This document shows, one piece after another, positions 12,162 through 21,970 of a DNA stretch of 32,000 nt. A model generated the notes under the pieces. That model was not told where the DNA came from, made no database searches, and was given only the letters and a program-made list of their open reading frames with translations. This DNA comes from Promethearchaeota archaeon (GTDB lineage Archaea; Asgardarchaeota; Lokiarchaeia; Sigyniarchaeales; Promethearchaeaceae): positions 180,001-212,000 of the forward strand of contig JAFGBS010000001.1 in the NCBI GenBank assembly GCA_016933055.1, read 5' to 3'. Position 1 is the stretch's first letter; each line of letters begins with the position of its first letter. Both the position numbers and the translations under genes were made by a program.

Positions 12162-13391
12162 TTAAAATTTTAACGTGATCCGAATCTCGATATCTTGATT
12201 AACGTATTGTTTTATTTTTTCTTGGATTTCATCCCTATCATTTTTTAATTTCTCAAGAAGATGTCGATATTCGGTAGTTTTATGATTTGCATCCGCTTTC
12301 AGATGCTCTAATTCTTGAGTTTTAATTGAATATAAACCCTTCAATTCGGATAATCGTTCATTTAAGGTTTGCTGCTGGGGGTTTCTATTAATTTCTTCCA
12401 ATTGGACTTGAATTTCTTTGTATTCTTTGATGATTGGTTTTAATACTTCTTTTGATACTATTTGATCGATATTTTCAAGTAATTTCTGTTTAGCATCTGA
12501 TTTTAGATTTAAACTACCGCTTTCCAACATATAACGCAATTGAATCAAAAATTCGGTGAGATTTGGGTGATTCCCACTCTCGCTAGTAATTGCACTATAG
12601 GGATCACTAATGTACTTTTTTACCATTTCCGAGGTGATACCCCGAGTGGATCCGGAATTTTCTACTTTTTTTTTTAATTTCTTGAGAGCTTTTCTAAATT
12701 TAAGCTTATTATCAAATTCAATACGAAGATTAAATAGCTTTTTTTCTAGTTCTGCTTGTTTTTGGAACAGTTCATTGTTCTCGATATCAATTATCTGTTG
12801 CTCTAAACCTTCCAATTCATGTTCTAAATTATCGACATCTTGATTGAAATTATCTACAGTAGATTTTGTGTTTATAATACGTTCGACTGTGTTGGCTAAC
12901 TTAGGGAATTGTTTTACCAGATTTTCTGCTTCTTTAGGTTCTTCATACTTCTTACGTATAAAGGTATCGATACGCATATAATGCTCACTTATCTTCCTGG
13001 TGATGAAATCAATTTCTTTTAATTCTAATTGGAATTCTTTAGCAAATCTGGGGATATTTTTTCGTCCCAATTCATTCATATTGATGAATAAACGCTTAAT
13101 TTCATCTATTAGATTATAAACCTCTTCAGCAGTAGGGTTTTCCGGGACGGTAATTATATCTAAGTTTTCCTTCACTTTTGTATAGAATCTATCCACATAA
13201 CGAATTGATTGCTCATCTAATTCAATATTCTCTTTTCTTTCACGCATTTTATCTACTGCACTTTTAAGGTCTACAATATATTTCTCTAACCGTTCGACGA
13301 ATCTTTTTAGAAATTTCTTTGGTTTCATATAAACTTCATTCAATTGCTCTGTATAAAATTGTTCTAAGTTTTCAAGAGGAATTTCAGTCAT
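12162..13391 (-). CDS. Hypothetical long coiled-coil protein
   Basis: 409 aa, E/K/L-rich heptad segments, no NTPase motif; 13 nt upstream of the M20 gene. Confidence 0.75.
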   Translation of the reverse strand: MTEIPLENLEQFYTEQLNEVYMKPKKFLKRFVERLEKYIVDLKSAVDKMRERKENIELDEQSIRYVDRFYTKVKENLDIITVPENPTAEEVYNLIDEIKRLFINMNELGRKNIPRFAKEFQLELKEIDFITRKISEHYMRIDTFIRKKYEEPKEAENLVKQFPKLANTVERIINTKSTVDNFNQDVDNLEHELEGLEQQIIDIENNELFQKQAELEKKLFNLRIEFDNKLKFRKALKKLKKKVENSGSTRGITSEMVKKYISDPYSAITSESGNHPNLTEFLIQLRYMLESGSLNLKSDAKQKLLENIDQIVSKEVLKPIIKEYKEIQVQLEEINRNPQQQTLNERLSELKGLYSIKTQELEHLKADANHKTTEYRHLLEKLKNDRDEIQEKIKQYVNQDIEIRITLKF

Positions 13392-13468: not shown

Positions 13469-15208
13469 TTAATCGAGTAATATTTCAGGAAAATTTCTTT
13501 TAATAAATTCTTGTAGTTTTTTAATGTTTAATCCAAGATATCCTTTATTTTCAGCGTCCCCTTTGAAAATGAATGTTTTATCTTTGCTGGTTTTTATGGT
13601 TATCCCCTTTGTAAGAAAGTGATTTATGGAGGGGAGTTCCTCGATAAGGCTACCTTGTGAGGAAGGTTCTTGTTTCGCTTCTTCCTTCCTTATCTCGTCA
13701 TTTTCCAGTATTTCAGTTCTTGATAGTTCGGTAATTATTCCCGCAAGCTTTTCTAAGGAAGGTAAACTTTGCTTAAATCTATTCATCTCAGCAATACTTT
13801 GGAGATTCTGTAATGAGAATAATTCCGTCAGTATTTTTAGCTTTATTATAACTATAAGAGGGAATTCCAAATTTGTATTTGCCGTGATTGTTTCTTCCAA
13901 TTCCCCAATTGCTGTAGTAGTTTTTTTGTTATCGAATATTATTTTATATTTTTTCGTATCGAGTTGTTTGTGGATTAAATTTCCCTTGTCTGAGACTCCA
14001 AGGTAAAATAATGAGTTCAATTCTCTCTTACCTTTTGGATTAACAACAAGAGTCGCTACCAAAATTCGTTCATAATACTTTACTATGGATTTTATGGTAT
14101 CATTAAGATGTAATAAGAGTTTATCAGCATCAATTCCAATTTCTGATAATAAACGCGTGAAAATAGATTCGGGATATGTACCGAATAGATTTGATAACTG
14201 TATAATATCTAAGAGGGCACTTAAAATAGTGTATTCGGGATCATTGAAGTTCATTAAAAATTGGTAAAATTGATCTATTTCTATAGTTAATGTGTTGGTT
14301 TTTGTCCTTGTGTATAAAATTCTGGCAAGTTCGGTAATGCTTTTACTTTCGATGTTAGTTAATTGTTCCTTAATAAACTCAAGGGGAACCGGATTGACAT
14401 GAATAATCCCATTTTCTATAATAATTCTCCCGATGCTAATGGGTTTTTTGTTTTTACTCACTAAAAGGAGATTCATGGTTAAACCCTCCATCATCTGAGT
14501 AAAAAAATCGAAAATTTGATTGACATTCACGCCCATCCACTCGCTGGCAAATTTTATAAACATGTTGATCAGAGGATTATTTCTATTTGCCTTACTTGAT
14601 AGTTCAATAACTGGCATTTTTTTCATTTCTTGCCCTAATCCCTTTCTAAGCAATCCTATAAAATCCTTAAAATATCGCACAACGTCTGAATTAATATAAT
14701 CTATGGTGTCTTGAACTCCTAAATGGGCAATGTGCTCAGGTAAAATGAATAGTAAACCTAAATCAAAATTAAATTCTTTCTGAGCAAAATTTTGGACGAA
14801 TTTAAATGCACGCACGTCAAAATTGGCAATAAGTTCTTTTAATTCCTTATAATATTTCTTATTTTTACGATCCAGAGAAATAACCTTAAAGTCAAACCGT
14901 GGTTGTCCCGTTCCAATTTCTTCTTTACCAGTTTCTATAAATTTGAATAAAAAGCATTCAAAAATTTCAGAATAATCTCGATTAGTAATCACAAAACCCA
15001 TATTATCAAATAACTTAAGGCGGTATAGTTCTTTCAAAAGGAAATAGAATTGATTTAAATCCCAAATAAATGGAAAAAACGGAATTCGAATTTTGTGATT
15101 CTTTTCTTCATCTAATGGTTCTTCAGATATTTTGTTCAATTGTGAAACTAAAGTTCGGAAAAATTGCTCTACAGAGCCTTTTTTATACGATGTACGAACG
15201 ATCGACAT
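13469..15208 (-). CDS. Hypothetical protein (579 aa) with apparent threefold internal repeat
   Basis: Long ORF with AGGAG upstream of the ATG; no recognised family. Confidence 0.75.
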   Translation of the reverse strand: MSIVRTSYKKGSVEQFFRTLVSQLNKISEEPLDEEKNHKIRIPFFPFIWDLNQFYFLLKELYRLKLFDNMGFVITNRDYSEIFECFLFKFIETGKEEIGTGQPRFDFKVISLDRKNKKYYKELKELIANFDVRAFKFVQNFAQKEFNFDLGLLFILPEHIAHLGVQDTIDYINSDVVRYFKDFIGLLRKGLGQEMKKMPVIELSSKANRNNPLINMFIKFASEWMGVNVNQIFDFFTQMMEGLTMNLLLVSKNKKPISIGRIIIENGIIHVNPVPLEFIKEQLTNIESKSITELARILYTRTKTNTLTIEIDQFYQFLMNFNDPEYTILSALLDIIQLSNLFGTYPESIFTRLLSEIGIDADKLLLHLNDTIKSIVKYYERILVATLVVNPKGKRELNSLFYLGVSDKGNLIHKQLDTKKYKIIFDNKKTTTAIGELEETITANTNLEFPLIVIIKLKILTELFSLQNLQSIAEMNRFKQSLPSLEKLAGIITELSRTEILENDEIRKEEAKQEPSSQGSLIEELPSINHFLTKGITIKTSKDKTFIFKGDAENKGYLGLNIKKLQEFIKRNFPEILLD

Positions 15209-19376: not shown

Positions 19377-20930
19377 ATGAACGATGAATTTCGTACTGGA
19401 ATTAAACGATTGAGAGATATCTATAATTATCTCACTGAAGATGAACCTACACCCGATGAAGAAGAGGAATCGAAACAAGAATTAATTTCTTTGCTTGAAA
19501 ACTTAATCATGCACATCGATCCAGATGATATCGAGGATAATCTCGAAGTAATAAAAACCACACTGCAAATGGTCAAAGAATGGGATACATTGGAATTTTG
19601 GTTTAAAGAGAAACCGGATTTGGTTACCAAAATCAAATTACTGTTAAATCGATTCCTTATCCAGCATGCAGAGCCCGAACATTCTTCACCGATGATCTCT
19701 AAGCCAAGTGCGCCTAATGGAGTTGATGAAGAATTGTCAGAACAATTAGCTGCTGCCTTGGAACGTGCTTTAAAAAACCTTCCTCCTGATGAGGATGTAA
19801 CAAAAGTTATCCAATCCGTTACCGCTAGAGTTACAGAGAACTATATGAAAACCTCCTCTTCTGATGATAATGCAATGAAATTATCCTCTGAACCCATTGT
19901 AAAAGAGTCCAACTATTCTCGACTTCAATCTGATATCAGAACTGCGAGTGGTTCGGAAGAAGCAATGACCCAAACAGCGGCAAAGGTAAAAATTAGAAAA
20001 GAAGACATAATGAAAAGCGTGTTAGAACAAGCTAAAATCAAAATCTCCCAAGCAACAGATTCAACCACAACAGCTAAGCTAAGCGCACCCAAAATAATTA
20101 TACCCAAAGTAACCCGTCCCAAGCAGAAAATTGTACCGTATATTGATCAAACCGATCAACTCACAGAATCTGAACAAAAGTATCAAGAATTAGAATCCAT
20201 TCCCCCAATACAACCACAAGAAACATCAAAACAAATTCCTAAGTTAAAAGTGGGAGCTTTTAAAAAAGATGAAACTACAACCCCAAAAATAAAAACTCAT
20301 GGCTCTGTTGTGTCACATCAACCAATTCGACCGAAAATTATTGTAAAACCTTCTATACAAACAAATGAGAGTGAACAAAAATCCCCAATTCAGGAAGTAG
20401 CCCCCCCATCCCAGTCAAAAATGACTAAACCGAAAATAAAACTTCAAGCTCTTTCCGTATCAAAACCAGCACCAGAACTTGAATCCCCAAAACCCGACAC
20501 TTTACCCCTCAAATTTAACATAGTCACACCTACAGAACCAAGTGTGAAAGATACACAAATTAATTTGTTTGAAACATTCACTAAACACAACAATAAAGAT
20601 AAAAAACAGAAAACAAAAAAAAAGACTCCTAAAAACATTGCTGAAGAAGAATCAAAACCGAGTAAATCCCTTCCTCTTGAAGAATTGGATTTTTCAGAGC
20701 AAAAAATTCCTTATGAACAAATGGATAAAACTCAATTATATCAAGAGTTAATCGCATTAGAAGGAAAAAAATATGCCATTGAAAAATCTCGAAAGGATTA
20801 TAAATCCAAACACCAAAAAGGACTAATTTCAAATGGAAATTACGCAGCTCAGCTTGATCGATTCAAATATGATTTAAATTACATCTCGAAAAAAATAAAT
20901 GAAATTCGTCAGCGTATCCAATCCCTCTAA
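19377..20930 (+). CDS. Helical N-domain, long Pro/Lys/Ser-rich disordered linker and C-terminal steadiness-box (Vps23/TSG101 core)-like domain
   Basis: C-terminal LYQELIALEGKKYAIEKSRKDYKSKHQKGLISNGNY aligns without gaps to the TSG101 SB box as recalled; PSAP at aa 110-113; GGAG upstream. The CDS is solid, the domain call is tentative. Confidence 0.6.
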   Translation: MNDEFRTGIKRLRDIYNYLTEDEPTPDEEEESKQELISLLENLIMHIDPDDIEDNLEVIKTTLQMVKEWDTLEFWFKEKPDLVTKIKLLLNRFLIQHAEPEHSSPMISKPSAPNGVDEELSEQLAAALERALKNLPPDEDVTKVIQSVTARVTENYMKTSSSDDNAMKLSSEPIVKESNYSRLQSDIRTASGSEEAMTQTAAKVKIRKEDIMKSVLEQAKIKISQATDSTTTAKLSAPKIIIPKVTRPKQKIVPYIDQTDQLTESEQKYQELESIPPIQPQETSKQIPKLKVGAFKKDETTTPKIKTHGSVVSHQPIRPKIIVKPSIQTNESEQKSPIQEVAPPSQSKMTKPKIKLQALSVSKPAPELESPKPDTLPLKFNIVTPTEPSVKDTQINLFETFTKHNNKDKKQKTKKKTPKNIAEEESKPSKSLPLEELDFSEQKIPYEQMDKTQLYQELIALEGKKYAIEKSRKDYKSKHQKGLISNGNYAAQLDRFKYDLNYISKKINEIRQRIQSL

Positions 20931-21054: not shown

Positions 21055-21468
21055 ATGAGCAGTAAAGACAAATTAATATCCATTCTAGATTCCGCTTTTG
21101 ATCATGGTACTCCTTTCATTGATTACACTGTAGATTATATCTATTGTTTGATCCCCACCTCAAATGCTGTAAAATGGAAAGAAATATCATACGATATATC
21201 CGGGGGTGAGTTTGAAGAAAAAGAACTCGAATCGGAACTAGGATTTGCAATGTTATGTGAAGAAATTGAAAAAGGTTTATCTATGTACATTGAAGATTTT
21301 ATGCTTTCGAAATTTAAAGAATTTAAAGAGAGTATAAAAGATAAAGACGATACGGAGAAAATAATCGAAATTATCAAAGAATTAGTAAATAATGGTTCTC
21401 AATACTCTCAAAGGTTACCTGTTATCAATAAGAAAGAAAGCTTAGACATTGTTAAAGGAAAAGTATAA
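21055..21468 (+). CDS. Hypothetical acidic protein (137 aa)
   Basis: ATG-initiated ORF with natural composition, convergent with the next gene (7-nt gap). Confidence 0.7.
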   Translation: MSSKDKLISILDSAFDHGTPFIDYTVDYIYCLIPTSNAVKWKEISYDISGGEFEEKELESELGFAMLCEEIEKGLSMYIEDFMLSKFKEFKESIKDKDDTEKIIEIIKELVNNGSQYSQRLPVINKKESLDIVKGKV

Positions 21469-21475
21469 TCATAAA

Positions 21476-21970
21476 TTAGAGAAATATATTATCCCTCTGG
21501 GGGTAATTTTTTTGCCATTTTTTCTTTACTTTTTCCCTTAGCTTTTTTTCGGAACTAGGATATTTCTCTTGAACCCGTTGTTTCAATGTTTTCATTTCCT
21601 GAGGAGCGATACGGGCAATTCCCATTGCATTTATAAGTTCCTGCTCAGAAATAGGAACTGACATCCCAAACATACTATGAAAGGTCTCGTTCTTTTTCAT
21701 CATTTTCGAAGTAGATTCAGATGCAATTTTTTGGTCCAAATCGGTAAGATCAATATTTTTCAATTCTTTACCGAACGAGATGCTCCGGTAAGGATCAATT
21801 GGCTTACTTTTAAGCCAAAATGTACTGGGCTTTTGGGAGATAATCAAATCATGATTAAACTGATCATCTACTCCACCATGTACTTGCCAGCCTTCCTTAT
21901 CTTGGTCATATTTCTTCTTAATCTTTTTGATAATAGAAGAAAGCGGTTTAATTTCAGATTCATCGGTCAT
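21476..21970 (-). CDS. Hypothetical protein (164 aa)
   Basis: ORF co-oriented downstream of purF; no recognised family. Confidence 0.7.
   Translation of the reverse strand: MTDESEIKPLSSIIKKIKKKYDQDKEGWQVHGGVDDQFNHDLIISQKPSTFWLKSKPIDPYRSISFGKELKNIDLTDLDQKIASESTSKMMKKNETFHSMFGMSVPISEQELINAMGIARIAPQEMKTLKQRVQEKYPSSEKKLREKVKKKWQKNYPQRDNIFL

Follow-up and report, generated by a model that had tools for sequence, protein, structure and literature searches.

In eukaryotes, the membrane-sorting complex ESCRT-I is held together by a helical hairpin termed the steadiness box; no known organisms are more closely related to eukaryotes than the Asgard archaea. A first-pass annotation of a 32,000-nucleotide stretch of DNA from a Promethearchaeota archaeon (contig JAFGBS010000001.1, positions 180,001 to 212,000; the window) proposed that one of its genes, located outside any ESCRT cluster, encodes a protein that ends in such a box. 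The questions raised by this locus are whether the hairpin is a steadiness box, what kind of protein carries it, and whether that protein is likely to work with ESCRT-I. The relevant features, in the numbering of the window, are as follows.

19377..20930, + strand, stop codon included: the whole gene, encoding 517 aa (P0001); open ORF, translation and homologues
19377..19676, + strand: acidic four-helix bundle, aa 1–100, predicted by AlphaFold2 on 42 sequences
19722..19874, + strand: two further helices, aa 116–166, predicted by AlphaFold2 and kept in the closer homologues
19875..20711, + strand: basic linker rich in K, S, P and E, aa 167–445; composition, poor alignment and many gaps
20076..20138, + strand: short linear motif 1, aa 234–254, K-L-x-x-P-K-I-x-I-P-K-V-x-K-P-K-x-K-I-x-P
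20541..20579, + strand: short linear motif 2, aa 389–401, S-V-K-D-x-x-x-x-L-F-x-x-F
20712..20927, + strand: helical hairpin of steadiness-box kind, aa 446–517; hhalign and reciprocal HMM searches
21055..21468, + strand: downstream orphan of 137 aa (P0002), a conserved neighbor and candidate partner
21476..21970, − strand: convergent orphan of 164 aa (P0003), a conserved partner of P0002

P0001 is a conserved and hitherto undescribed Asgard protein, and its gene is genuine. Of 400 Asgard genomes, 205 contain the N-terminal domain, in almost every case as a single copy; these genomes cover almost the whole of the Loki-type order. Twenty-five full-length homologues were recovered, and the named members of the family are all annotated as hypothetical. 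The 517-residue open frame and its coordinates are those of the first-pass annotation, including the correspondence of aa 454–517 to positions 20736–20927, and the C-terminal string quoted there is exact for aa 454–512. Pfam searches with the whole of P0001, with aa 430–517 and aa 1–160, and with both neighboring proteins returned only noise below threshold. A scan for promoters and terminators performed no better than shuffled sequences; the consensus used was bacterial and the host is archaeal.

The last ~70 residues were found to be the most conserved part of P0001 in an alignment of 14 full-length homologues. The run from L454 to G463, together with Y466, E469 and the G-x-I turn, is invariant in these proteins, which are 28–63% identical elsewhere. 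Across 66 diverse carriers of the hairpin, the turn glycine and E462 are at least 90% conserved. Using hhalign, 164 family hairpins were compared with 34 Asgard proteins picked with the Pfam model Vps23_core (PF09454), and the two sets were aligned over 72 columns with a probability of 97.2%, an E value of 3.2e-11 and a score of 62.3 (P 3e-11). Twenty column shuffles scored no higher than 14.6 (best P 0.045) and a reversed template scored 22.9; the likeness to steadiness boxes is far above chance. The signature residues that had been singled out (A-I-E, G-x-I and the following aromatic) are the same ones that are conserved in Asgard steadiness boxes. The family HMM matched the Vps23_core region itself in 34 of 34 Asgard proteins tested, at 9–26 bits against a noise ceiling of 13.7 bits (10,445 ORFs of its own genome). 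When the HMM was built from the Vps23_core-positive proteins alone, it ranked the orthologue of Znr_CC_PH_SB first and P0001 second among these 10,445 ORFs, and it recognized 109 family and carrier proteins at E < 0.01.

Solved structures were also searched. The best natural PDB match of the 66-sequence hairpin profile is CdvA (E 1.1e-3), and the Pfam CdvA model (PF18822) matches 11 of the 66 family hairpins below threshold. With a 14-sequence profile, chains of the yeast Vps28 headpiece were found only at E 0.17–0.31, and the designed PPR repeats that topped this search were rejected as an artifact of summed weak repeats; neither match is counted as evidence. A single-sequence search of the PDB gave the coiled coils of SMC1A and FBP17 at E 0.26 or worse. 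Neither PF09454 nor PF18822 matched P0001 or aa 430–517, even at E 10. The profile comparisons (hhalign, the HMM searches and the CdvA match) support the assignment of the C-terminal hairpin to the steadiness-box/CdvA hairpin superfamily, in which it is closest to the Vps23-type boxes. Its shape is probably that of a two-helix antiparallel hairpin, to judge by how it aligns with known boxes and by the conserved G-x-I turn. The invariant run, the turn and the strictly C-terminal position point to a specific interface.

The remainder of P0001 is laid out as an acidic N-terminal four-helix bundle followed by a basic linker of ~280 residues that leads to the hairpin. An acidic helical N-domain and a middle region rich in Pro, Lys, Ser and Glu had been described initially, and the composition, the pI values and the AlphaFold2 bundle agree with that description. 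The first 100 residues have a pI of 4.4, and the predicted helices span residues 3–21, 26–46, 49–68 and 80–97, with pLDDT values above 90 over aa 1–97. Conserved motifs include an E-P-T-P-D-E-E loop and W-D-T-L-E-x-W-F, and residues E29, W69, D70, W75, F76 and E78 are invariant in the alignment. The two additional helices (118–133 and 141–166) were predicted with a pLDDT of ~87. The earlier statement that this domain is not a UEV holds, since it is modeled as a four-helix bundle and P0001 has no UEV match in Pfam; cysteine clusters, a PH domain and a PRC barrel are also absent from it. The structural search suggested for this domain was run (Foldseek, VIA wide, Atlas) and gave generic up-down four-helix bundles only, with BRIL, the talin rod, designed bundles and the C-terminal domain of Vps28 (2j9w) among the ties. 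Vps28 combines an N-terminal headpiece hairpin with a C-terminal four-helix bundle, and P0001 has the same two elements in reversed order. A displaced Vps28 C-domain is ruled out at the sequence level, as the hhalign comparison with Vps28_C gave 2%.

The linker (aa 167–445) contains 16% K, 10% S, 10% P and 9% E, has a pI of 9.6 and is presumably disordered. A continuous stalk helix ahead of the box is improbable, because the preceding 280 residues are 10% Pro, rich in K, S and T, and poorly aligned. Two short motifs are nevertheless conserved within it. In motif 1, positions L235, P238, I242, P243, P248 and P254 are invariant among the 14 homologues, and the core P-K-[ILV]-x-[ILV]-P occurs in 59 of 99 family representatives versus 2.8% of shuffled linkers. 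Motif 2, located ~140 residues ahead of the C-terminus, has an invariant L397 and an F398 that is at least 90% conserved in the same alignment; it was found in 64 of the 99 representatives versus 2.4% of shuffles.

Vps23/TSG101 (PF09454) and the Asgard Vps23-like proteins end, as does P0001, in a helical hairpin of ~65 residues, and the conserved pattern common to the Vps23 boxes and P0001 has L-E-x-E-x-x-A-I-E in the first helix, G-x-I-x-x-x-E-Y at the turn and a second helix that is amphipathic. P0001 differs from these proteins in that it has neither a UEV nor a coiled-coil stalk but an unrelated four-helix bundle and a Pro/Lys-rich linker of ~280 residues, in that it falls below Pfam's own threshold, and in that its gene does not lie beside ESCRT or ubiquitin genes. 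Another parallel in layout is the Asgard-specific protein Znr_CC_PH_SB (asCOG cog.011556, PMC10936438), in which non-UEV modules are likewise connected by an extended low-complexity linker to a steadiness box at the C-terminus. Where P0001 has the four-helix bundle, this protein has zinc ribbons, a PH domain and a helical stalk, and its linker is rich in Q and N, whereas that of P0001 is rich in K and P. A class of multidomain Asgard steadiness-box proteins is already on record (Makarova 2024, PMC10936438), a point missed in the first-pass annotation, which announced a new architecture. The arrangement itself is absent from the published architectures in the accessible literature, and P0001 is a new architectural variant within this known class.

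The hairpin is a mobile module found on very different proteins, a point absent from the first-pass annotation. It was identified in 166 proteins of 71–4375 residues and is at the extreme C-terminus in every case. Among the carriers are giant surface proteins with a single membrane pass, a fusion of Roadblock with a Ras GTPase and a protein with a GIFT domain; from its presence on the surface proteins and the GTPase fusion, the hairpin looks like a general docking module. Genomes of family f4 have 2–4 carriers each, with giants among them. The number of carriers is just one or two in most genomes of the order, and the giants occur mainly in a single family. Many genomes contain a single copy of the P0001-type hairpin subtype, and in these the partner of the hairpin must be either itself or a more distant box.

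Candidates for such a partner are available. The genome that contains P0001 also encodes a Vps28-like protein (P0029), two Snf7 proteins, EAP30 and an orthologue of Znr_CC_PH_SB (685 aa), the gene for which adjoins a Snf7 gene. No UEV was detected by Pfam in this genome, although the control also matched nothing, so that its absence is weakly supported. Complex prediction for the P0001 hairpin with aa 4–100 of P0029 gave a score of 0.02, which counts neither for nor against binding.

We propose, at about even confidence, that P0001 is a soluble scaffold or adaptor of the Loki-type Asgard archaea that tethers the ligands of its N-terminal half to an ESCRT-I-like hub. The hairpin would be the assembly module, by analogy with ESCRT-I headpieces of known structure and the Odinarchaeal complex, in which a Vps23 dimer binds one Vps28, Vps23(2):Vps28(1) (PMC9192718). 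It may pack side by side with itself, with the N-terminal hairpin of Vps28 or with the box of Znr_CC_PH_SB, and the two linker motifs and the acidic bundle would recruit further partners. P0001 could then bring whatever its N-terminal half binds to the hub without the use of ubiquitin or a UEV. Since giant surface proteins carry this hairpin on their cytoplasmic tails, and the Roadblock-GTPase fusion and the GIFT-domain protein have it too, one hub may serve as the docking site of several clients. A function in ESCRT-I is suggested by analogy. Standing against it are the lack of a Pfam match, of a UEV and of ESCRT neighbors, the Pro-rich linker in place of a stalk, and the weak similarity of the P0001 hairpin to the N-terminal hairpin of its own Vps28 (hhalign, 13%); as CdvA shows, hairpins of this class can also form homopolymers outside ESCRT-I. 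The observation made in the first-pass annotation is confirmed, and its interpretation, an alternative ESCRT-I-like adaptor, is partly supported.

The hairpin could instead be a steadiness-box homologue that operates in a separate, non-ESCRT network, in which hairpins of this subtype (the L-Y-Q-E-L-I-A-L-E-G type) bind themselves or polymerize head to tail. This is possible but doubtful, as is the combined proposal that P0001 then acts in the cytoplasm as a hub or cross-linker, which would connect the tails of the giant surface proteins with the Roadblock-GTPase and the GIFT protein and might, for instance, anchor or cluster surface proteins. Conservation of the subtype is very strong even between unrelated carriers, its members resemble each other more than they do Vps28, CdvA coiled coils polymerize head to tail via hydrophobic contacts (PMC12818579), synteny with ESCRT genes is lacking, and the f4 genomes possess several carriers. 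However, the closest sequence kinship of the hairpin is to Vps23-type boxes, for which the known role is ESCRT-I assembly. With so few carriers in most genomes, and the giants mostly in one family, a hetero-network cannot be the conserved function, and self-association alone remains for this explanation.

Two other explanations concern the nature of the hairpin itself. It is very unlikely to be a generic charged hairpin or coiled coil of the SHOCT kind, with a likeness to steadiness boxes that is convergent through composition and heptads and with no specific docking. Coiled-coil models in Pfam do give sub-threshold matches to the family hairpins (GvpG in 32 of 66, APG6_N in 31 of 66 and SHOCT in 14 of 66), the reversed template still reached 22.9, and P0001 alone has no steadiness-box match in Pfam. 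The true alignment, however, scored far higher than the shuffled and reversed controls, the Vps23_core-derived HMM picked just two ORFs from a genome full of coiled coils, and the invariant ten-residue run and the turn are strictly C-terminal. The SHOCT (PF09851) matches do not extend beyond the turn, with its motif G-x-I-[ST]-x-x-E-Y, and the Pfam model did not match P0001; SHOCT is a 28-residue element, whereas the unit in P0001 is a two-helix hairpin of ~70 residues with the strongest conservation upstream of the turn. Least probable of all, and in our opinion scarcely credible, is that P0001 is a functional analogue of CdvA, polymerizing close to the membrane and recruiting ESCRT-III directly for the purpose of division or the scission of vesicles. 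The CdvA coiled-coil domain (PF18822; PDB 9s9g, 9s9i) is the best natural match to the hairpin among solved structures, published work treats the CdvA hairpin and the steadiness box as homologous, the P0001 gene is single-copy and core-like in its order, and its hairpin and linker are basic. CdvA, however, has a PRC-barrel N-domain together with a peptide at the C-terminus that binds ESCRT-III; P0001 has neither, and there is no room for the peptide, since nothing follows the hairpin. Its gene does not adjoin those for Snf7 or Vps4, and Asgard genomes already have their own ESCRT-I/II route to ESCRT-III.

P0001 adds to the Asgard repertoire a widespread, single-copy and unannotated family with a real steadiness box, and it bears on how Asgard ESCRT-I recognizes cargo. 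Giant surface proteins have this box at the end of their cytoplasmic tails, and it also terminates fusions of the trafficking type (Roadblock-GTPase and GIFT). If these boxes assemble with Vps28, the recruitment of ESCRT could be hard-wired into the clients rather than routed through ubiquitin. To our knowledge, the Asgard archaea lack Vps37 and ESCRT-0. A bolder proposal, which we think unlikely when taken as a whole, is that in the Loki-type Asgard archaea the hairpin serves as an "address tag" that is portable and independent of ubiquitin, by which the Roadblock-GTPase, the GIFT protein and the giant surface proteins plug directly into an ESCRT-I-like headpiece, with P0001 as the universal soluble hub subunit and a stand-in for the missing Vps37/ESCRT-0. 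The linker motifs and the bundle would in that case recruit machinery, possibly the P0002/P0003 pair or adaptin-appendage proteins. If true, this would be cargo-encoded ESCRT recruitment that predates ubiquitin-based sorting.

The gene for P0001 is flanked by those for the ribosomal proteins S13/S4/S11, a CoA-binding enzyme, purF and purC, and likewise at locus L012. No ESCRT genes were found near it in its own locus or in two related loci, in agreement with the initial report; those of its own genome are on contig C17 or 162 kb away. Little can be read into this location, given that ESCRT genes are dispersed in this genome in any case. The two small orphans noted at 21055 and 21476 do exist and are conserved neighbors, syntenic with the P0001 gene across the order and at that level only. 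P0002 was found as a single copy in 270 of 400 Asgard genomes, and the hairpin end of P0001 lies within the ~1.5 kb upstream flank of its homologue in 28 of 30 loci of the order. Its AlphaFold2 model is confident (pLDDT 95.7) and has no fold match in the PDB; ESM Atlas look-ups for P0002 and P0003 gave no usable match. P0003 was found in 170 of 391 genomes, and its homologue adjoins that of P0002 in 30 of 30 loci of the order. P0002 and P0003 are conserved as partners of each other across Asgard lineages, and P0002 is a candidate partner of P0001. In family f4, the gene for P0003 is co-directional with that for P0002, and the two abut or slightly overlap.

The target gene encodes a 517-aa protein (P0001) and belongs to an Asgard (Promethearchaeota) genome of 3.76 Mb that is 91% complete, in which the window spans C16:180001-212000. 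Translation of the ORF reproduced exactly the C-terminal string quoted in the first-pass annotation, which maps to 20736-20927, and the architecture claimed there (an acidic N-region, a basic linker, and a C-terminal box segment) is present in the protein.

19377-20930, + strand, target gene, open ORF of 517 aa
aa 1-100, + strand, acidic N-terminal region of the target, pI 4.4, net charge -13
aa 167-445, + strand, basic linker of the target, K 16, S 10, P 10, and E 9 percent

The C-terminal segment is by far the best-conserved part of the target. Residues L454-G463, Y466, E469, and G482 are invariant among the homologues, and the remainder is only 28-63% identical. Using 42 sequences, AlphaFold2 modelled aa 3-97 as a confident up-down four-helix bundle (pLDDT >90) and two more helices at aa 118-166. 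Fold searches with this N-domain returned generic bundles only, the Vps28 C-domain (2j9w) being one of many ties; at the sequence level, a relationship to the Vps28 C-domain was rejected after a negative hhalign comparison. In addition to the helix bundle, two linker motifs were shown to be conserved. The motif P-K-[ILV]-x-[ILV]-P, inside K-L-x-x-P-K-I-x-I-P-K-V, was found in 59 of 99 representatives versus 2.8% of shuffles, and x-L-F-x-x-F, inside S-x-K-S-x-G-x-D-L-F-N-V-F-S-S, in 64 of 99 versus 2.4%.

The target gene is real and widespread. A word-indexed search returned 25 relatives, of which the named ones are all from Promethearchaeota and all annotated as "hypothetical". By profile search, the N-domain was found in 205 of 400 Asgard genomes, nearly always as one copy. 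It is near-universal in the order to which the window belongs (families f1, 12/13; f3, 116/135; f4, 4/4) and frequent in further families (f13, 29/31; f18, 11/12; f19, 19/19), and the same search found it missing from some others, such as f16 (0/22).

The C-terminal hairpin (aa 446-517) had been proposed to be a steadiness box. A Pfam search of the target gave no match to Vps23_core, CdvA, Vps28, or Mod_r, even at an E-value of 10, and the protein lies outside the steadiness-box families by Pfam's own criterion. The hairpin was compared with reference boxes from 34 Asgard proteins matched by Pfam Vps23_core (30 above the curated cut-off), which were drawn from 400 genomes and include Znr_CC_PH_SB proteins of ~670 aa. 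For every one of the 34 reference boxes, the best domain of an HMM built from the target-family C-termini alone coincided with the region matched by Pfam, with scores of 9-26 bits; in the target's own genome (10,445 ORFs) the top non-family score was 13.7 bits. The hhalign comparison of 164 family hairpins with the 34 reference boxes gave a probability of 97.2% (E 3.2e-11) over 72 aligned columns, in register across L-E-x-x-x-Y/A-x-x-E, the turn G-x-I-x-x-x-E-Y, and helix 2. As controls, 20 column-shuffled templates scored no higher than 14.6 (P at best 0.045), and the reversed template scored 22.9. In the opposite direction, an HMM from the Vps23_core-positive set alone ranked the Znr_CC_PH_SB orthologue first and the target second in this genome, the sole ORFs among 10,445 with E <0.01, and it detected 109 proteins ending in the same hairpin subtype (carriers) at E <0.01.

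The top natural match of a 66-sequence hairpin profile among solved structures was CdvA (9s9i, E 1.1e-3), whose hairpin is regarded in published work as homologous to the steadiness box. The N-hairpin of the genome's own Vps28 gave hhalign probabilities of 13% with the target-family hairpin versus 86% with the reference boxes; by this measure, the target hairpin is nearer to Vps23-type boxes than to that of Vps28. The profile comparisons and their controls agree where Pfam is silent, and we conclude that, as judged by sequence profiles, the target hairpin genuinely belongs to the steadiness-box/CdvA hairpin superfamily, although it has diverged.

Across 1.84 billion representatives, an exhaustive HMMER search identified 166 proteins of 71-4375 aa with the hairpin (E 1e-3 or better). 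It occupies the extreme C-terminus in all 166, which shows that it is a mobile, strictly C-terminal module. Of the 146 new representatives in the search listing, 99 also contain the target N-domain. Among the other carriers are Promethearchaeota giants 1.2-4.4 thousand residues long (e.g., P0147, P0161, P0162, P0170, and P0172), with a signal-peptide-like start, a T/S/V/N-rich body, and a single hydrophobic segment that lies 260-310 aa from the C-terminus. Pfam found no domain in their ectodomains. Their tails contain a conserved juxtamembrane motif, R-E-E-N-I-Y ... F-L-Q-T-R-D-S-R-Y-A-A-K ... G-Y-A-P, followed by a linker rich in P, A, and K that includes an L-P-K-P motif, and finally by the hairpin. 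On hydropathy alone, these giants look like single-pass type-I surface proteins with hairpin-ended cytoplasmic tails. The public protein P0084 (417 aa) combines a Roadblock/LC7 domain, a Ras-family GTPase, and a steadiness-box-type hairpin in one chain. Between one and four carriers occur per genome within the order, with the giants concentrated in f4. In the second carrier of the target's genome, P0028, an N-terminal GIFT/ABC_transp_aux domain (IFT52 GIFT, E 9e-10) is joined through a Pro/Lys-rich linker to the C-terminal hairpin.

C28:79128-80480 (= L009:5129-6481), - strand, P0028, 450 aa

Two paralogues of 340-356 aa (C11:95404-96426 and C28:19083-20153) begin with the element E-L-E-N-S-F-K-E-G-K-I-D-E-x-S-Y, whose matches to the two steadiness-box HMMs are weak (E 3e-4 to 0.04) and which may be an N-terminal SHOCT or half-box element.

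The target is flanked by housekeeping genes (S13/S4/S11, a CoA-binding enzyme, purF, purC, and a HAD hydrolase), with a Ras-family GTPase gene 6.6 kb downstream. Two adjacent large ORFs, 12162-13391 (- strand, 409 aa) and 13469-15208 (- strand, 579 aa), matched no Pfam family at E 1e-4. The target does lie outside any ESCRT cluster, as had been stated, and the ESCRT genes of this genome are found elsewhere:

C17:165 kb, Vps28-like protein P0029
C17:628197-630551 (= L011:4198-6552), + strand, P0030, zinc-ribbon/winged-helix/Vps28_C protein, 784 aa
C17:285 kb and C17:681 kb, two Snf7 genes, the first convergent with the Znr_CC_PH_SB gene
C16:37 kb, EAP30

Since these genes are scattered, the position of the target is not very telling. 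P0030 has N-terminal Cys clusters, repeated winged-helix/PCI-like units (with UFM1-ligase, DDRGK, and EAP30-like matches), and a C-terminal Vps28_C domain, an arrangement that matches the "Vps28-C multidomain" class described by Makarova 2024 (PMC10936438).

The target hairpin would be expected to assemble with other boxes in the manner of ESCRT-I headpieces and of the Odinarchaeal complex of a Vps23 dimer with Vps28 (PMC9192718). Such assembly would make the target an adaptor linking an ESCRT-I-like hub to the ligands of its N-terminal half. Where a genome holds a single carrier of the hairpin subtype, as many do, the partner would have to be either the target itself or a less closely related box, for example that of Vps28 or Znr_CC_PH_SB. 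In the main rival explanation, the hairpins may form a separate homotypic network or polymer, of the kind formed by CdvA coiled coils.

Multidomain proteins with a steadiness box have already been published as an Asgard theme, and docking onto ESCRT-I has been suggested for them (Makarova 2024, PMC10936438). In the texts of the papers and supplements consulted, we found no description of the target architecture, of the phyletic spread of its family, or of the box on surface-protein tails or in Roadblock-GTPase or GIFT fusions. These features are apparently undescribed in text within the published class and may have been depicted earlier in figures.

The two small orphans beside the target, proposed as its candidate partners, recur as its neighbours in distant relatives.

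21055-21468, + strand, P0002, 137 aa
21476-21970, - strand, P0003, 164 aa

The trio is sometimes interrupted by an NAD synthase gene. Within the order, a P0003 homologue adjoins the P0002 homologue in 30 of 30 loci, and the hairpin end of the target falls within the ~1.5 kb of upstream flank fetched in 28 of 30. In f4, P0002 and P0003 are encoded in the same direction, directly adjoining or with a slight overlap, and the target lies beside the pair in divergent orientation; in f5-f7, the target and P0002 are on separate contigs. On this locus comparison, P0002 and P0003 are a firm pair whose tie to the target holds at the order level only. P0003 occurs in 170 of 391 Asgard genomes and has neither a Pfam family nor an Atlas model. 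P0002 is present as a single copy in 270 of 400, including lineages without the target family. It matched no solved structure (lowest Foldseek E 0.07, highest VIA Z 4.8). Its very confident AlphaFold2 model (pLDDT 95.7, pTM 0.88), composed of a helix, a four-stranded sheet, a long helix, and an order-specific helical insert, may represent a new fold.
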